Source: a virus
Taxonomy: Duplodnaviria; Heunggongvirae; Uroviricota; Caudoviricetes
IMG/VR virus record: IMGVR_UViG_2737471826_000005
Length of the DNA stretch: 37,920 bases
Strand: one strand, 5' to 3'
The notes under the pieces were generated by a model. It was given only the letters and a program-made list of their open reading frames with translations, had not been told where the DNA came from and ran no database searches. A program made the translations under genes and the position numbers. Every line of letters starts with the position of its first letter. Position 1 is the first letter of the stretch. Below, piece by piece: positions 22,019 through 35,264 of this stretch.

Positions 22019-22369
22019 TTAAAGCCCCATCGCAACAGCCAGACAGACCGCTGCAACAATCAGTGCACGGCGGATTAACGCAGCAGAAAACACCAGGTGA
22101 AGGCCGGTCTGTACCGGGAAACGCCCATCAGCCATCAGCCTGTCGTCATGTTTCAGGTACTGACCGGGACGGGCTTTGGGGAAGAGCGAACGGTCAAGCC
22201 AGTAACCCAGCACTGCTGCCAGCGTGATGAGTGCCAGCTTGTAGATCACAACAGGCAACTGCTGTGGCGAGACCAGAGCGATGGTGCCCAGCAACAGCAC
22301 TGAGGTCAGCAGCCAGCCGCTGAGGCGAGGTTTTTTAACAGGGGGAATGAATTTTTTCAGGTTTTTCAT
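22019..22369 (-). CDS. holin-like membrane protein (three predicted TM segments)
   Basis: First gene of leftward late operon, AAGGAGA RBS before ATG at 22369. Confidence 0.5.
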   Translation of the reverse strand: MKNLKKFIPPVKKPRLSGWLLTSVLLLGTIALVSPQQLPVVIYKLALITLAAVLGYWLDRSLFPKARPGQYLKHDDRLMADGRFPVQTGLHLVFSAALIRRALIVAAVCLAVAMGL

Positions 22370-22499
22370 GTGTGTCTCCTTGTCTGGTGGAGACAGCATC
22401 ACAAATACAGGGCGCGAAGGATTTTAAAGCGCGTTAAGAGAGCCGGGGATACGGGATGTGCAGGATAAACGATGAATTATTCACAGAGGAGAATACGAT

Positions 22500-23243
22500 A
22501 TGACGCAGACACTGAATCCGGTCATCACTGTCACCGTGTCCGGTCCTGTGGGCAGCGGTAAAAGTTACATATTGGCGCGGATAGAGGAAGTGGTGAAACA
22601 GGAATTCGGGGGCAGCGTCATTGTCGATGCTGCAGACGTAGATGATGAGCGGCGTATGAGTGGCGATGATCTGACGACCTGGCAGAAGCCACGGGGTGGC
22701 ACAGTGATCAGGCTGGAGGAATACACGGGACAGGGCCTGTTGTCATACGGCGAGGAGCGTATCTGTCGGACGAATGAGCTGCTGGATGTTATATGCCCCA
22801 CGGGCCGGCAACCCTGGATACTGCCCGATGCACTGCATGCCACCATTGCGGCACTGATGACAGTTTACGATCAGGAGCTGCTCATGAAGGAGCTACGTAA
22901 ACTCACCGGTCAGCCAACAGAATGTTTTTCTGCCCCGAAGTACGGGAAACAGGAACACATCCCGGTGAACACGCTCCCCGTTAACCAGCCTCCCCGGTTC
23001 TTCGACGAATACATTCTGACACCGGAAAATAAAGCTGAGCACGAAGAGATCAAAGCGGCGTTGTTCCGGGAAATCAGGAAGATTGCTGAAATGCAACTGG
23101 GGGGCGGGCTGGACAGAGTGATGGCGAGAGGAGAATGGGAGTCGCTGTTTGAAAGAGTTTCCCCGGAATTACTTCCCCTCGCACTGGCTATCGGGATTAT
23201 GCAGACAGCGGATAAACCTCACTTACGTTCATTAAACACGTAA
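22500..23243 (+). CDS. P-loop NTPase/kinase-like protein, unknown function
   Basis: Walker A GPVGSGKS at residues 15-22; GAGGAG RBS; no family assigned. Confidence 0.6.
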   Translation: MTQTLNPVITVTVSGPVGSGKSYILARIEEVVKQEFGGSVIVDAADVDDERRMSGDDLTTWQKPRGGTVIRLEEYTGQGLLSYGEERICRTNELLDVICPTGRQPWILPDALHATIAALMTVYDQELLMKELRKLTGQPTECFSAPKYGKQEHIPVNTLPVNQPPRFFDEYILTPENKAEHEEIKAALFREIRKIAEMQLGGGLDRVMARGEWESLFERVSPELLPLALAIGIMQTADKPHLRSLNT

Positions 23244-23623
23244 CGCATAATCCGGGATACGCATTCAGCGATGACTGCATTTTCACCGGTTTTTACTGCA
23301 TCCAGAAGTGACTCTTTAAATGGTGCGGGCCGGGGCTGCAGAAGGGTCGGCGTGGCATTGAGCAGACGGAGCGTTTTTTCCGTGAGGACGACATCAGCCG
23401 CTCCCACAGCCAGCAACTGAGAGTAACGAATATAGCTGTTATCCCGAAGCCATATCAGCGTATCAATAAAATACCGGCACTTTTTCTGGTCGTGATCAAC
23501 CTGGTCCGGGATATCGAAAAAACCAGAATAAATCAAAACCTGAGGTGCCGGATGCGTGTTCAGTAATCGGCAGAATATTTTGCCGGTGAGTGCATAAAAA
23601 TCATCATTTAAGGAGTGCATCAT
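23219..23623 (-). CDS. hypothetical protein, convergent with P-loop gene
   Basis: 134-aa ORF filling an otherwise 378-bp gap; weak G-rich RBS. Confidence 0.4.
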   Translation of the reverse strand: MMHSLNDDFYALTGKIFCRLLNTHPAPQVLIYSGFFDIPDQVDHDQKKCRYFIDTLIWLRDNSYIRYSQLLAVGAADVVLTEKTLRLLNATPTLLQPRPAPFKESLLDAVKTGENAVIAECVSRIMRYVFNERK

Positions 23624-23837
23624 GAATCCCCGATTAACGTTAACAGAACATCAGCGCCGTGCTGAAGCAGTGAACAATGTTCTGGAAGATATTATCCGGT
23701 TACATCGCGGAGAACTGAGTGTCTGTCGTGCCGCTTTTCATTTTCAGGGAATACAAAAGCAGTTTGATACTTCTGTTTTTGCAGAAGGTATTACTTATGC
23801 CCTGGACCGGATAAGGTCAGAAAATCGCCCCGGATAA
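23622..23837 (+). CDS. hypothetical small protein
   Basis: 71 aa, strong AAGGAG RBS 6 nt upstream of ATG. Confidence 0.5.
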   Translation: MNPRLTLTEHQRRAEAVNNVLEDIIRLHRGELSVCRAAFHFQGIQKQFDTSVFAEGITYALDRIRSENRPG

Positions 23838-24028
23838 TCCCTAAACCACATTAACAGAAATCCCACTATCCCTGCCGCATCATGAAAGAACGACCAGCCC
23901 GGTGCTTCGGACCCACCGGGCTGGCCATCGTCCCACAGAAGTGGCTGTGAGCCGACCGAGGTTCAGTCAGTCTCGCGAGACCAGACTAGCCTGCCATATT
24001 TTTAATAATTGTAAAAGGCTTACAGATT

Positions 24029-24793
24029 ATGAAAATGAAGACATTACCCATCGTTCCATGGATTGGTGGCAAACGTCGCCTGGCAAAACACATCCTGCCG
24101 CTGTTTCCGGCGCATGAATGTTATGTGGAGCCGTTTTGTGGGGCAGCAGCGCTCTATTTTCTTAAGACACCCGGCAAGATCGAAGTCATCAATGATATCA
24201 ACGGTGAACTGGTGAATCTGTACCGGGTGGTAAAGCATCACCTGGAAGAATTTGTCCGCCAGTTCAAATGGGCGCTGGTCAGCCGTCAGATCTACAAATG
24301 GCTGCAGATCACCCCGGAAGAAACACTGACGGATATCCAGCGTGCGGCACGGTTCTACTACCTTCAGAAGCAGGCGTTTGGCGGCAAGGTGGCAGAGCAC
24401 AGCTTCGGTACCTCCACCACATCCCCGCCACGCTTCAACCTGCTGCGTATTGAAGAAGAACTGTCAGCAGCACACCTGCGGCTTTCCAGAACAGTCATAG
24501 AACACATGGACTGGCAACAGTGCATTGAGCGTTATGATCGTCCGCACACACTGTTCTACTGCGACCCACCGTACCTGGGTACGGAAGGCTATGGTGTGGA
24601 TTTTCCTGAAGGGAACTACTCGCGGCTGGCAGAGCTGGCCCGGTGCATCAGAGGAAAAATGATAATTTCGGTGAACGATATCCCACAGATGCGCGAGGTG
24701 TTCACTGGACTGAACATACAGACAGTGAACATCAACTACAGTCTGGCGGGGAAATCTACGCCGCGCCGTGAACTGGTAATCTGCAACTTCTGA
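24029..24793 (+). CDS. DNA N6-adenine methyltransferase, Dam (D12 class)-like
   Basis: N-terminal WIGGKRRL and catalytic DPPY motifs. Confidence 0.85.
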   Translation: MKMKTLPIVPWIGGKRRLAKHILPLFPAHECYVEPFCGAAALYFLKTPGKIEVINDINGELVNLYRVVKHHLEEFVRQFKWALVSRQIYKWLQITPEETLTDIQRAARFYYLQKQAFGGKVAEHSFGTSTTSPPRFNLLRIEEELSAAHLRLSRTVIEHMDWQQCIERYDRPHTLFYCDPPYLGTEGYGVDFPEGNYSRLAELARCIRGKMIISVNDIPQMREVFTGLNIQTVNINYSLAGKSTPRRELVICNF

Positions 24794-24825
24794 AACAAAA
24801 CCGGAAAGCACAATGCTTTCCGGTA
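24790..24825. terminator. hairpin between convergent dam-like and repressor genes; U-run on minus strand
   Basis: ACCGGAAAGCA / TGCTTTCCGGT stem; TTTTGTTTCA follows on minus strand. Confidence 0.5.
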
Positions 24826-24909: not shown

Positions 24910-25248
24910 TCAGCCTGCGAGTTTGCTTGGTTTGGGTTGAATGAAGACTTTGCCGACCTCAAGAATTGCCCTCCGTTGTTCGGGGCTCATTTCGTCGAAT
25001 GCATCCATTAACTCTTTCTTTTCTTGTGACACATAAGGTGCAACAACAGGCTGACTCCGCACCCCAGTAACTACATACAAAATATCTACACCGATTTCTG
25101 ATAGTGCAGATAACTGCACTGCAGTAGGAGAAGTGCGATCTTTTTCCCAATCAATGAAAGTTCTCTTTGCCACACCTATAGCATCAGCCAACCCTTGCTG
25201 TGTAAGAGATAGACGCTCTCTTTCTTCTTTAATACGTAACCCGATCAT
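24910..25248 (-). CDS. prophage repressor, HTH XRE/cI-like
   Basis: MIGLRIKEERERLSLTQQGLADAIGVAKRTFIDWE HTH; divergent from early operon; track ORF is an N-terminal extension. Confidence 0.7.
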   Translation of the reverse strand: MIGLRIKEERERLSLTQQGLADAIGVAKRTFIDWEKDRTSPTAVQLSALSEIGVDILYVVTGVRSQPVVAPYVSQEKKELMDAFDEMSPEQRRAILEVGKVFIQPKPSKLAG

Positions 25249-25272
25249 GTGAGTTTTTCTGCACTCTTTAAG

Positions 25273-25301
25273 TTGACTGGTGAGGTAATCTGCACCATAA
25301 T
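25273..25301 (+). promoter_or_regulatory. candidate sigma70 early promoter with overlapping repeated TCTGCAC operator-like motif
   Basis: TTGACT, 17-bp spacer, CATAAT; TCTGCAC at 25258 and 25289. Confidence 0.45.
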
Positions 25302-25348
25302 CTATCACACATAAGGCAAACATCATTGCATCAACAAAGGAGACAACG

Positions 25349-25537
25349 ATGACTGCAGAACAAGTCAAAGCTCTCTTCCGCCAGCGCGGGATCACTTTCA
25401 CCCGCTGGGCAGAAGAAAACGGCTACAACCGCAATGAGGTATACCGCGTTCTCAATGGGCAGACCAAAGCCCGTTACGGTAAATCCCATGAAATCGCCGT
25501 GAAGTTGGGGCTGAAATCAACAGCTCAGGCAGCCTGA
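25349..25537 (+). CDS. small DNA-binding protein, Ner/Cro-like
   Basis: 62 aa, first gene of rightward operon, AAAGGAG RBS. Confidence 0.55.
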   Translation: MTAEQVKALFRQRGITFTRWAEENGYNRNEVYRVLNGQTKARYGKSHEIAVKLGLKSTAQAA

Positions 25538-25583: not shown

Positions 25584-25898
25584 ATGCAGATGAGTAAGAC
25601 GAATGTTTCAAGCTCCGGCAGTCGCATCCTCCGGGTACTCAAAGCGCTGCGCGGTCATGCCCTGAACGGTATTTCCAACGGTGAACTGGCGGCAGCACTG
25701 CACGAGTCACCGGCAAACATCAACCGGGCACTCAACACCCTCATTGAAGAAGGGTTGGCCCTGAAACTGGAAAACGGGCGTTTCGCGCCGGGCATCCAGT
25801 TACTGCAGATCGCTATGGCCCACAGTAACGAGATGGCACGTGCACAGGATCGCATTAACGAAATCAACCAACGTGTCATTTCAGGTAGTCGTTTGTAA
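25584..25898 (+). CDS. putative winged-helix DNA-binding protein
   Basis: 104 aa, ...NGELAAALHESPANINRALNTLIEEGL... HTH-like. Confidence 0.5.
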   Translation: MQMSKTNVSSSGSRILRVLKALRGHALNGISNGELAAALHESPANINRALNTLIEEGLALKLENGRFAPGIQLLQIAMAHSNEMARAQDRINEINQRVISGSRL

Positions 25899-30696: not shown

Positions 30697-30891
30697 ATGA
30701 TATTTAAATGTATTCAGTGCGAGAGGGATATAACAGCCCTGCGTTTTCACAGCGCCATCGCCGTGATGTCCGGTAAGTACCACGTACCTGCAGTACGCGT
30801 CACCCTGGTCTGTCCGTACTGCAGTCAGCATTTTTCGGCAGACGTGCCCGTCATGGAATTCTCCCGCCCTGACAGGGAGGACTCGCAATGA
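30697..30891 (+). CDS. small zinc-ribbon protein (CxxC...CxxC)
   Basis: 64 aa, Cys at 5, 8, 39, 42. Confidence 0.5.
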   Translation: MIFKCIQCERDITALRFHSAIAVMSGKYHVPAVRVTLVCPYCSQHFSADVPVMEFSRPDREDSQ

Positions 30892-32587: not shown

Positions 32588-33029
32588 ACAACGTCTTATC
32601 CAGCTCATTCATATTGCCCGTAATGAACTGGGTATGGATGAAGACACCTACCGCCAGATGTTACAGGGGCTGACCGGTAAAGCCTCAACCAAAGGAATGG
32701 ATACCACACAACTAAACTGCGTGCTGGAATCCATGAAAAGGAAAGGCTTTCGCGTTAAGCCTGCCGGAAAAGCCAGCTCCGGTTTACCGCTGGATAACCA
32801 TCCGCAGTCCAGGAAAATCCGTGCGCTATGGCTTGAAATGGCTGCTGCCGGCATTGTTCGTGACCGTTCAGAAAATGCATTAGCGCGGTGGATCAAGCGG
32901 GAAACGGGCATCAGCGCCCTGCGCTGGCTCAGTACTGAACAGGCAAGCAGTGTTATTGAGAAACTGAAGAAGTGGCAGCGCAGAGCTGCGGGAGTCAAAC
33001 ATGAGCGACCTGAATCAGTTTCGAAGTAA
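32577..33029 (+). CDS. GemA-like protein (Mu gp16 family)
   Basis: Position immediately upstream of mor; RLIQLIHIARNELGMDEDTYRQ motif. Confidence 0.65.
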   Translation: MMTKQRLIQLIHIARNELGMDEDTYRQMLQGLTGKASTKGMDTTQLNCVLESMKRKGFRVKPAGKASSGLPLDNHPQSRKIRALWLEMAAAGIVRDRSENALARWIKRETGISALRWLSTEQASSVIEKLKKWQRRAAGVKHERPESVSK

Positions 33030-33399
33030 AGGGCCGGAACTCCTGGTGGAGCTGGCACAGCATACCTCTGAGACCGTTCGCGAGATTATTGATATTGAGC
33101 CCGCAATTGCCGACCAGATTGGTCAGGCCGTCGCGAACCGAATGATGCAGGTCTGGGGCGGGCAAAACGTTTATTTCCCGATGGGCATGGTATGGAAGGT
33201 CAGTCAGCGCGACCGGGAAATCTTCAGGGAGTTTAACGGACGCAACCACCACGAACTGGCCCGCAAGTTTGGTGTTTCGCTTCAGTGGGTCTACAGCGTG
33301 GTTAAGCGGGTCAGAAAAGAAGAACTGGATCGGATGCAGGGCAGGTTGTTTGATGAAGATCTGCCAGAGGAGACGAAAGACGTTAACAAATCCAGATAA
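33001..33399 (+). CDS. mor: Mor/C-family transcription activator
   Basis: C-terminal FNGRNHHELARKFGVSLQWVYSVVKRVRK matches Mu Mor NDFNGRNVSELTTRYGVTFNTVYKAIRRMRR. Confidence 0.85.
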   Translation: MSDLNQFRSKGPELLVELAQHTSETVREIIDIEPAIADQIGQAVANRMMQVWGGQNVYFPMGMVWKVSQRDREIFREFNGRNHHELARKFGVSLQWVYSVVKRVRKEELDRMQGRLFDEDLPEETKDVNKSR

Positions 33400-34496: not shown

Positions 34497-35264
34497 ATGT
34501 CTGATCATCTGGGCTTTCGTTCGTCACTGCTGCAAGCGAGCTTTAACTACGAAAGGATGCAGGCGGGCGGTTTTACCTGGGCGATGTTGCCGATCCTGAA
34601 AAAGATTTATAAGGACGACAAACCGGGCCTAAGCGCGGCGATGAAAGATAACCTCGAATTTATTAATACCCACCCGAATCTGGTCGGATTCCTGATGGGG
34701 TTATTAATTTCGATGGAAGAAAAAGGAGAAAACCGCGACACCATTAAAGGCCTCAAAGTGGCACTGTTTGGCCCAATCGCCGGGATTGGCGATGCGATTT
34801 TCTGGTTTACCTTATTGCCGATTATGGCGGGAATTTGCTCATCATTTGCCAGCCAGGGAAACTTGCTGGGGCCGATTCTATTTTTCGCCGTTTACCTGCT
34901 TATCTTCTTCCTGCGCGTCGGCTGGACCCACGTCGGTTATTCAGTCGGCGTGAAGGCGATCGATAAAGTGCGAGAGAACTCGCAGATGATTGCTCGTTCG
35001 GCAACCATCCTCGGGATCACGGTAATCGGCGGGCTGATCGCTTCGTATGTGCATATTAACGTGGTGACATCGTTTGCCATCGACAGTACCCACAGCGTCG
35101 CGCTGCAGCAGGATTTCTTCGATAAAGTCTTCCCGAATATTTTACCGATGGCCTACACCCTGCTGATGTATTACTTCCTGCGGGTGAAAAAAGCGCATCC
35201 GGTGCTGTTAATCGGCGTGACGTTTGTTCTTTCTATTGTTTGTTCTGCATTCGGCATTTTGTAA
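34497..35264 (+). CDS. agaD: PTS N-acetylgalactosamine-specific IID component, 5'-truncated/altered by prophage insertion
   Basis: Body of protein matches AgaD as I recall it, but N-terminus MSDHLGFRSS replaces native MGSEISKKDITRLGFRSS. Confidence 0.8.
   Translation: MSDHLGFRSSLLQASFNYERMQAGGFTWAMLPILKKIYKDDKPGLSAAMKDNLEFINTHPNLVGFLMGLLISMEEKGENRDTIKGLKVALFGPIAGIGDAIFWFTLLPIMAGICSSFASQGNLLGPILFFAVYLLIFFLRVGWTHVGYSVGVKAIDKVRENSQMIARSATILGITVIGGLIASYVHINVVTSFAIDSTHSVALQQDFFDKVFPNILPMAYTLLMYYFLRVKKAHPVLLIGVTFVLSIVCSAFGIL

Follow-up and report, generated by a model that had tools for sequence, protein, structure and literature searches.

A solitary D12-class adenine methyltransferase gene beside the repressor of a BcepMu-type prophage in Escherichia coli

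Genomic context and identity of the methyltransferase gene

The analyzed stretch of DNA (37,920 nucleotides, in the following "the window") is E. coli chromosome that carries a BcepMu-type transposable prophage in agaD. From position 34508 onward, the sequence is 100% identical to the agaD-agaI-rsmI-lpoA region of many strains, and the right prophage/chromosome junction (34507..34508) is located inside agaD. The window starts within the prophage and includes only its right end. The late arm is encoded on the minus strand and comprises a holin gene, an SLT endolysin gene, Mu-type head genes and P2-type tail genes. The early arm contains the repressor gene on the minus strand, genes for Ner-like, IclR-like, DUF3102, Mu-type DDE transposase, Gam, GemA and Mor proteins on the plus strand, and an ExeA-like gene. 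Divergent early and late arms define the BcepMu type (Bcepmuvirus) and are found here. Among phage records, Escherichia phage PhiKM (genus Bcepmuvirus) is nearest, with 92% nucleotide identity in this region and 98.8% protein identity for the methyltransferase.

The methyltransferase gene (24029..24793, plus strand) encodes 254 aa from an ATG start codon. It lies centrally in the prophage, between the lysis cassette and the repressor, and not at the mom-equivalent genome end. The reading frame has no in-frame upstream extension, because the ORF call starts at the first start codon past a stop. In a sequence-only reading of the locus, the product had been described as a D12-class N6-adenine methyltransferase with a DPPY motif on a prophage, and both the profile matches and the surrounding Mu-type genes bear this out. 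The protein matches Pfam PF02086 (MethyltransfD12) over residues 11-234 of 254 (E-value 5.9e-29, 102 bits, cut-off 22) and PHROG 56 "DNA methyltransferase" (6e-101). Its best PADLOC match is the "Type II MTase" model, which is covered over the full length (5.9e-113).

The characteristic motifs were located in an alignment of 120 sequences, i.e. the query and 119 close homologs. Motif I, which binds SAM (residues 34-41, EPFCGAAA; 24128..24151, plus strand), contains F36 in 118 and G38 in all 120 sequences. The catalytic motif IV, DPPY (residues 179-182; 24563..24574, plus strand), is present in 120/120 sequences as well as in EcoDam, T4 Dam and DpnM, and the Asp of motif II is likewise retained throughout. 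Motif I is N-terminal to motif IV and both are intact, which is the criterion for the alpha class. Codon changes relative to the copy in E. coli EC958 (see below) are mostly silent, with 12 synonymous and 3 non-synonymous changes, a ratio that points to purifying selection. The gene is intact and, judged by its motifs, encodes an active-looking enzyme. An AlphaFold2 model (pLDDT 52.7, pTM 0.47), built from a 14-sequence alignment in which all members are at least 85% identical, was of too low quality for fold search and for mapping of the recognition loop.

The region between the lysis cassette and the methyltransferase gene (22500..23837) is a variable cargo slot. It contains ORFs 22500-23243 (plus strand, 247 aa, weak P-loop match), 23219-23623 (minus strand, 134 aa) and 23622-23837 (plus strand, 71 aa), for which no function is predicted. 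These genes are swapped for others in related prophages. In prophages of Klebsiella KP12, Serratia, Yersinia and Erwinia, other genes or none are found between holin and methyltransferase as well as between methyltransferase and repressor, but the methyltransferase gene and its leader are kept. BcepMu encodes gp18-gp20 in the same slot and has no methyltransferase. Searches of Pfam, NCBIfam, PHROGs and PADLOC gave no match to nuclease or defence models for any of the flanking ORFs (cargo-slot ORFs, repressor, lysis genes), in agreement with the earlier description of a methyltransferase that lacks an adjacent restriction endonuclease. Since the gene persists while both flanks vary and no nuclease is found nearby, the term "orphan" is justified. 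The methyltransferase gene belongs to the fixed core of BcepMu-type transposable prophages in enterobacteria and, from these comparisons, is a self-contained unit between two variable cargo slots.

Regulatory elements flanking the gene

The 85 bp preceding the start codon (23944..24028, plus strand) show hardly any variation across the range of E. coli to Erwinia, over which the coding sequence has diverged to ~81%. This upstream block contains a perfect 12-bp palindrome, GTCTCGCGAGAC (23970-23981, plus strand), that occurs once in the window and overlaps the -35 position. It is followed by an extended -10-like element, TGcCATATT (23992-24000, plus strand), recognized by its match to the consensus, and the block also includes an AAGG ribosome-binding site. 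A simple promoter scan listed no plus-strand promoter in the block. The lack of covariation in so constant a block favours a protein-bound promoter/operator over an RNA structure, and the block is the probable promoter/operator of the methyltransferase gene. An invariant block with a palindrome suggests dedicated regulation.

An RNA leader was considered as well, as the region folds with a z-score of -4.3 and the helix could mask the ribosome-binding site. This reading was rejected, since the 5' arm is invariant and the 3' arm shows one-sided changes and one break (L016). It is further weakened by the likeliest -10 element, which would start the transcript past the 5' arm, with the plus-strand start predicted near 24007. 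Rfam families were not matched in the leader.

The prophages encode different types of repressor, HTH_3 in this one and Phage_CI_repr in those of Yersinia and Erwinia, whereas the upstream block is constant. The immunity repressor is thus unlikely to bind the block, and a conserved phage regulator is the more likely candidate. A Mor-family transcription activator, a candidate late activator identified by profile match, is encoded at 33001..33399 (plus strand); no sequence link from Mor to the methyltransferase promoter was found. The IclR-like HTH protein (25584-25898) is a further conserved regulator of the phage. A shared late-promoter motif was also considered and rejected: the conserved promoter block of the holin gene is unrelated in sequence, no motif common to both blocks was found, and the palindrome has no second copy in the window. 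Membership of the methyltransferase gene in the late regulon is not supported by any motif shared with the holin promoter region.

Two hairpins surround the gene. The upstream one (23894..23924, minus strand) is GC-rich with an 11-bp stem, is followed by UCGUUCUUUCA on the minus strand, and was classified from its fold and from comparison as a leftward intrinsic terminator, antisense to the methyltransferase gene. In the minus-strand RNA, the stem is perfect in 7/7 relatives (-24.2 to -25.7 kcal/mol), including one compensatory change from T-A to C-G, whereas C·A mismatches are present in the plus-strand RNA of 5 relatives (-17.1 to -20.2). The downstream hairpin (24800..24824, minus strand) also has an 11-bp stem, with a T tail on the minus strand. 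From its fold and its position between the convergent genes, it is the putative terminator of the repressor transcript. Its stem is equally stable on both strands and may also end the methyltransferase transcript.

The repressor gene itself is HTH_3/DicA-like according to profile matches. Its longest ORF spans 24910..25401 on the minus strand, with a probable start at 25248 that yields 112 aa, and a Ner-like HTH gene (25349-25537, plus strand) is divergent from it. Methyltransferase and repressor genes are convergent, as noted from the sequence before, and separated by a spacer of 116 bp. With two leftward terminators, the methyltransferase gene is bracketed against antisense transcription, an arrangement that would be compatible with interference from repressor-side transcription in the lysogen but is no proof of it. 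A promoter-like site on the minus strand (24035-24008) is not conserved in other genera, and no antisense sRNA is claimed from it. The invariant block with its palindrome and the two bracketing terminators are new, if minor, details of the regulatory anatomy.

Relatives, distribution and target sequence

The methyltransferase is the same enzyme as REBASE M.EcoMIV (EC958_1101 / WP_000783854.1) from prophage Phi2 of E. coli ST131 EC958. Both proteins have equal length and share 251/254 residues (99%), with K4Q, S243P and V250L as the three substitutions. EC958_RS05075 was equated with EC958_1101 on the grounds that it matches the prophage D12 methyltransferase described in PMC4659465. The gene order is also the same, namely holin, SLT, three small genes, methyltransferase, HTH repressor, Ner-like, IclR-like, DUF3102 and DDE transposase. 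Differences concern the insertion site, which is agaD here and adjoins ycaL in EC958, and the loop of the upstream hairpin, which differs slightly. M.EcoMIV was named by Forde et al. 2015 as an orphan D12 type II enzyme of Phi2, for which no homolog of >65% identity with a known recognition site existed as of 2015 (PMC4659465). A later assignment of its recognition site was not found in the literature searched, and prophage "Dam-like" orphans of E. coli ST101 yielded no motif in 2020, their specificity still being unassigned. The earlier statement that the target motif cannot be read from the sequence is supported.

The gene is widespread. It is carried by 527-556 of 5426 complete E. coli genomes (~10%), including the pandemic ST131, and is located at many chromosomal sites. 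At least 80% of the gene is spanned by 516/527 E. coli copies, and the E. coli copies are always annotated as "DNA adenine methylase". Relatives with 85-95% identity are common in Salmonella, Citrobacter, Enterobacter, Klebsiella, Yersinia, Serratia and other genera.

More distant relatives are found in other phages. The "Dam" protein of Pseudomonas phage B3 (ORF48), a transposable Mu-like phage, is 63% identical over its full length, also a solitary D12 enzyme, and has the same clade-specific loop motif. In B3, however, the gene lies in the tail gene cluster and is preceded and overlapped by ORF47, which encodes a genuine Com translational activator (PF10122, 4e-22) as in the control of Mu mom, whereas the prophage described here has the palindrome-bearing block instead. 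No Com-like ORF was found in this prophage and tblastn gave no match (best E-value 0.67); the sole ORF with a double CxxC (30697-30891) does not match PF10122, unlike B3 ORF47. Translational control of the com/mom type known from Mu was rejected, as the Com zinc-ribbon ORF is absent. Lone D12 enzymes of 64-66% identity are encoded by the temperate phages phiE125 (Burkholderia, gp27), KS9 (gp25) and VP882 (Vibrio, Dam). These are lambda-like or telomere phages and not transposable, and the gene is located on the same strand after the lysis cassette (phiE125, KS9) or among tail genes (VP882), so that the homologs at ~65% identity, including B3 ORF48, sit with late genes. The virion DNA of phiE125 reportedly contains N6-methyladenine, as Woods and co-workers are said to have observed in 2002. 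The specificity of VP882 Dam was not found in papers citing VP882.

The sequence-only reading had also called the enzyme "Dam-like". This holds at the level of fold and family but does not extend to the residues by which GATC is read. Matches to solved structures were obtained for DpnM (M1.DpnII; 4e-17), EcoDam (3e-14), 7M6B (5e-12) and T4 Dam (4e-3). The three GATC enzymes share fold family, motif order, DPPY, the intercalating aromatic residue and the equivalents of R137/Y138 with the query, but only 21-33% identity. The recognition loop was compared by sequence alignment at this level of identity, and the residue equivalences to EcoDam agree between phmmer and MAFFT alignments (the latter with EcoDam, T4 Dam and DpnM). 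Residues 117-136, FGGKVAEHSFGTSTTSPPRF (24377..24436, plus strand), align with the DNA-recognition beta-hairpin of EcoDam, and this segment has a conserved motif of its own.

In EcoDam, Y119 intercalates, L122 and P134 touch the third base pair, K9 and Y138 read the first base pair, and R124 recognizes G in the fourth base pair, with discrimination of C:G being lost in R124A (PMC4417163). The corresponding query residues are F117 (Y119), G118 (N120), K120 (L122), A122 (R124), S132 (P134), R135/F136 (R137/Y138) and P10 (K9). F117, R135 and F136 are invariant (120/120) and G118, K120, S132 and P10 are fixed among close homologs. The position of R124 is occupied by Ala in the query and in 118/120 aligned sequences, and by D/E/T/H in B3, phiE125, VP882 and KS9. 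In the methyltransferase clade, F-G-G-[KR]-x5-G-T-[SA]-T-T stands in place of the motif common to EcoDam, T4 Dam and DpnM, [FY]-[NS]-x-[LM]-x-R-x-N...P-[FY]-G-[RK].

The GATC content of the prophage was evaluated as well. GATC is the most under-represented 4-bp palindrome, with 97 observed sites where a Markov model predicts 168.5 (O/E 0.58, z -7.9). The corresponding O/E values are 0.81-0.91 for the EC958 chromosome and 1.02 for BcepMu, which has a Dam-less host. Avoidance of GATC under counter-selection by MutH has been reported in enterobacterial phages (Deschavanne and Radman 1991, as cited in PMC8541194). So strong an avoidance would not be expected if the phage itself ensured methylation of its GATC sites.

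These data bear on the main alternative to an enzyme with a different target, i.e. a true GATC methylase of the Dam type that tops up host Dam during rapid replicative transposition, so that phage DNA stays fully methylated and is shielded from MutH or from DpnII/MboI-type restriction. Such a role in GATC protection has been proposed for the Dam proteins of T2 and T4. The alternative is consistent with the public annotation of relatives as "Dam", with the conserved intercalating aromatic and R135/F136, with DpnM, EcoDam and T4 Dam as best solved-structure matches, and with a score above the cut-off of NCBIfam TIGR00571 "Dam family". The latter is passed marginally, however, by less than 3 bits (117.4 vs 114.85), and the EcoDam equivalog NF008152 is missed by far (68.3 bits vs 441). 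The structural matches are likewise not specific to GATC enzymes, as 7M6B, which matches the query almost as well as EcoDam, is the N4-cytosine enzyme M.CbeI, an alpha-class protein with the same fold. The exchanges at the positions of R124, L122, P134 and K9 and the GATC depletion of the prophage relative to host DNA and BcepMu argue against this alternative, as does the REBASE label of M.EcoMIV, a provisional one, as putative type IIA, i.e. asymmetric-site (PMC4659465). The label and the annotation of the phiE125 homolog as similar to M.AlwI agree with the loop divergence in pointing away from GATC. Given the replaced GATC-reading residues and the avoidance of GATC in the prophage, both of them indirect indications, a GATC target is not to be assumed; the recognition sequence is probably not canonical GATC, and a genuine Dam-type activity, while having a real chance, is considered unlikely.

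Proposed role in the phage life cycle

For an intact, conserved and solitary alpha-class gene with a diverged recognition loop, we consider it fairly probable that the enzyme is off in the lysogen, on during lytic growth, and methylates phage DNA against restriction. The first step has a basis in the literature on M.EcoMIV, whose transcript was significantly below that of dam in the EC958 lysogen (mid-log, LB) and for which no motif could be assigned in the SMRT methylome of EC958 (PMC4659465). In lytic development, the conserved promoter/operator of the gene would then switch on the enzyme, which would mark replicating phage DNA before packaging, and the packaged genomes may resist adenine-methylation-sensitive restriction in the next host. 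Protection of phage DNA from restriction, one of two functions suggested from the sequence before, is plausible in lytic growth. The enzyme would be a functional analogue of Mu mom and presumably of the Com-controlled B3 "Dam". Mu Mom itself is not a methyltransferase.

The lytic anti-restriction reading is supported by the silence of the gene in EC958, by its persistence between varying flanks, by the location of the ~65% homologs with late genes, by the Com gene of B3 and by the model proposed for M.EcoGII, "silent in lysogen, on at induction" (PMC5778455). M.EcoGII and M.EcoGI, two non-specific adenine methyltransferases of E. coli, are likewise orphans, borne by prophages and silent in the lysogen (PMC5778455); they differ in being beta-class (DPPY before FxGxG), 349 aa long and encoded by an unrelated prophage type. 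Non-specific adenine-modifying enzymes of the alpha class with DPPY are also known from Mu-like transposable prophages, namely Hia5, Hin1523 and Nma1821 (PMC3299994). An anti-restriction role is ascribed to mom in Mu and to Hia5-type genes in FluMu-like prophages, and Mu-like prophages carry such adenine methyltransferases in place of mom (PMC3299994). The Hia5-type enzymes form a distinct D12 subfamily according to the published list of relatives, as the clade member B3 ORF48 is outside the 1000 closest relatives of Hia5. Their genes lie at the end of the genome, in the position of mom, whereas the methyltransferase gene here is central and adjoins the repressor.

A more detailed scheme can be put forward tentatively. 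It would make the clade of M.EcoMIV, B3 ORF48 and phiE125 gp27 a mom-equivalent with a non-GATC, asymmetric or relaxed adenine target (e.g. GAT-N-like, cf. EcoDam R124A). A regulator binding GTCTCGCGAGAC would restrict expression to the lytic phase, and antisense or convergent transcription, with its end at the two leftward terminators, would silence the gene in the lysogen.

Epigenetic regulation of host or prophage genes in the lysogen, the second function suggested from the sequence, is disfavoured and appears improbable. The gene does adjoin the immunity region, and the orphan methyltransferases Dam and CcrM act as epigenetic regulators. The proposed check of such a function, methylome sequencing of a lysogen, has in effect been done with EC958, where the 99% identical M.EcoMIV is transcribed below dam and leaves no attributable SMRT motif (PMC4659465). 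The "Dam-like" orphans of ST101 prophages are motif-less as well, and leftward terminators together with convergent repressor transcription suit silencing better. It is hardly conceivable that the enzyme provides the modification activity of a restriction or defence module with the neighbours at 22500-23837, as the best PADLOC match to "Type II MTase" and the weak P-loop match of the 247-aa neighbour might suggest. None of these neighbours resembles a nuclease or defence protein in the model searches, they differ or are absent in Klebsiella, Serratia, Yersinia and Erwinia where methyltransferase and leader are kept, and the relatives in phiE125, KS9, VP882 and B3 stand alone, too.

The gene is already known and otherwise routine, a correctly annotated prophage gene, and its practical interest is modest. 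Roughly 10% of complete E. coli genomes harbour it, and no recognition sequence has been assigned to it in the literature searched, which is relevant when restriction barriers are predicted or methylomes interpreted. Should the target not be GATC, prophage induction would release phage DNA with an uncharted methylation pattern. Mu-type phages package flanking host DNA, so that some host DNA would carry this pattern, too.

Conserved sequences flanking the methyltransferase gene

The D12-class methyltransferase gene (24029-24793, plus strand) is preceded by a block at 23944-24028 that sequence comparison shows to be near-invariant in prophages of E. coli, Klebsiella, Serratia, Yersinia and Erwinia. 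This block is more strongly conserved than the methyltransferase coding sequence itself. Within it, the 12-bp sequence GTCTCGCGAGAC (23970-23981) is a perfect palindrome that occurs only once in the window; it overlaps the -35 position belonging to an extended -10-like element, TGcCATATT. The block is a candidate operator that is probably bound by some conserved phage regulator.

Two leftward-facing intrinsic terminators enclose the gene, one upstream on the minus strand (23894-23924) and a second on the other side (24800-24824). The substitutions seen in relatives, which give G·U wobbles and in one case a compensatory pair, leave the stem at 23894-23924 perfect in minus-strand RNA only. This pattern implies that there is transcription antisense to the methyltransferase gene and that it is halted at this point.

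The annotated length of the enzyme varies. The counterpart in Escherichia phage PhiKM, the nearest phage record (L001 29908-30762; P0001), is annotated with 285 aa because its N-terminus is extended by 30 codons; an nr entry of 320 aa also exists. RefSeq and a conserved ribosome-binding site with ATG favour 254-256 aa.

GATC depletion in the prophage

Relative to expectation, GATC is the lowest 4-bp palindrome in the prophage part of the window (1-34507), with 97 sites observed versus 168.5 expected (O/E 0.58, z -7.9). The corresponding O/E values are 0.54 in PhiKM, 0.81-0.91 in the chromosome of E. coli EC958 and 1.02 in BcepMu. CTAG (2 sites) and AATT are likewise depleted in the prophage part, and CCGG is in excess.

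Cargo slots and neighbouring genes

The slots to the left and right of the methyltransferase gene are cargo hot spots (window 22500-23837; related loci L013, L014, L015 and L017). The left slot holds three genes without assigned function in E. coli (22500-23837) and a DUF2441 gene in the Klebsiella, Serratia and Yersinia elements, and is empty in one Erwinia element. Among these relatives, KP12 is classified under Vequintavirinae, yet its contig is a BcepMu-like element. On the right, between methyltransferase and repressor, several elements encode additional minus-strand genes of 114-312 aa. Two small genes of the left slot, 23219-23623 (minus strand, PHROG 2266) and 23622-23837 (plus strand, PHROG 4490), begin at overlapping start codons and run in opposite directions, and the former shares 25 nt with the 3' end of the 247-aa gene. 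This unusually tight packing is also present in EC958.

For the adjacent holin, ATG at 22369 is more probably the start than GTG at 22402; it yields a 116-aa protein, matching RefSeq. The holin leader (about 22367-22394, minus strand) carries a conserved inverted repeat, GTCTCC...GGAGAC, predicted to pair the Shine-Dalgarno sequence in a short hairpin. Upstream, a promoter block is conserved as well, TTAACGCGCTTTAAAATCC...CATTTGTGATGCT.

Early operon and insertion site

Directly after gam, the early operon encodes a zinc-ribbon-like 64-aa ORF with two CxxC pairs (30697-30891, plus strand). It has no match to Com (PF10122), the Mu mom-type translational activator, and its EC958 counterpart is annotated as hypothetical.

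With its chromosome junction at 34507/34508, the prophage interrupts agaD (galactosamine PTS) in the 5' part of the gene, and this transporter subunit is therefore probably inactivated in the strain carrying the prophage. Related prophages occupy many other chromosomal sites, as expected of a transposable phage.
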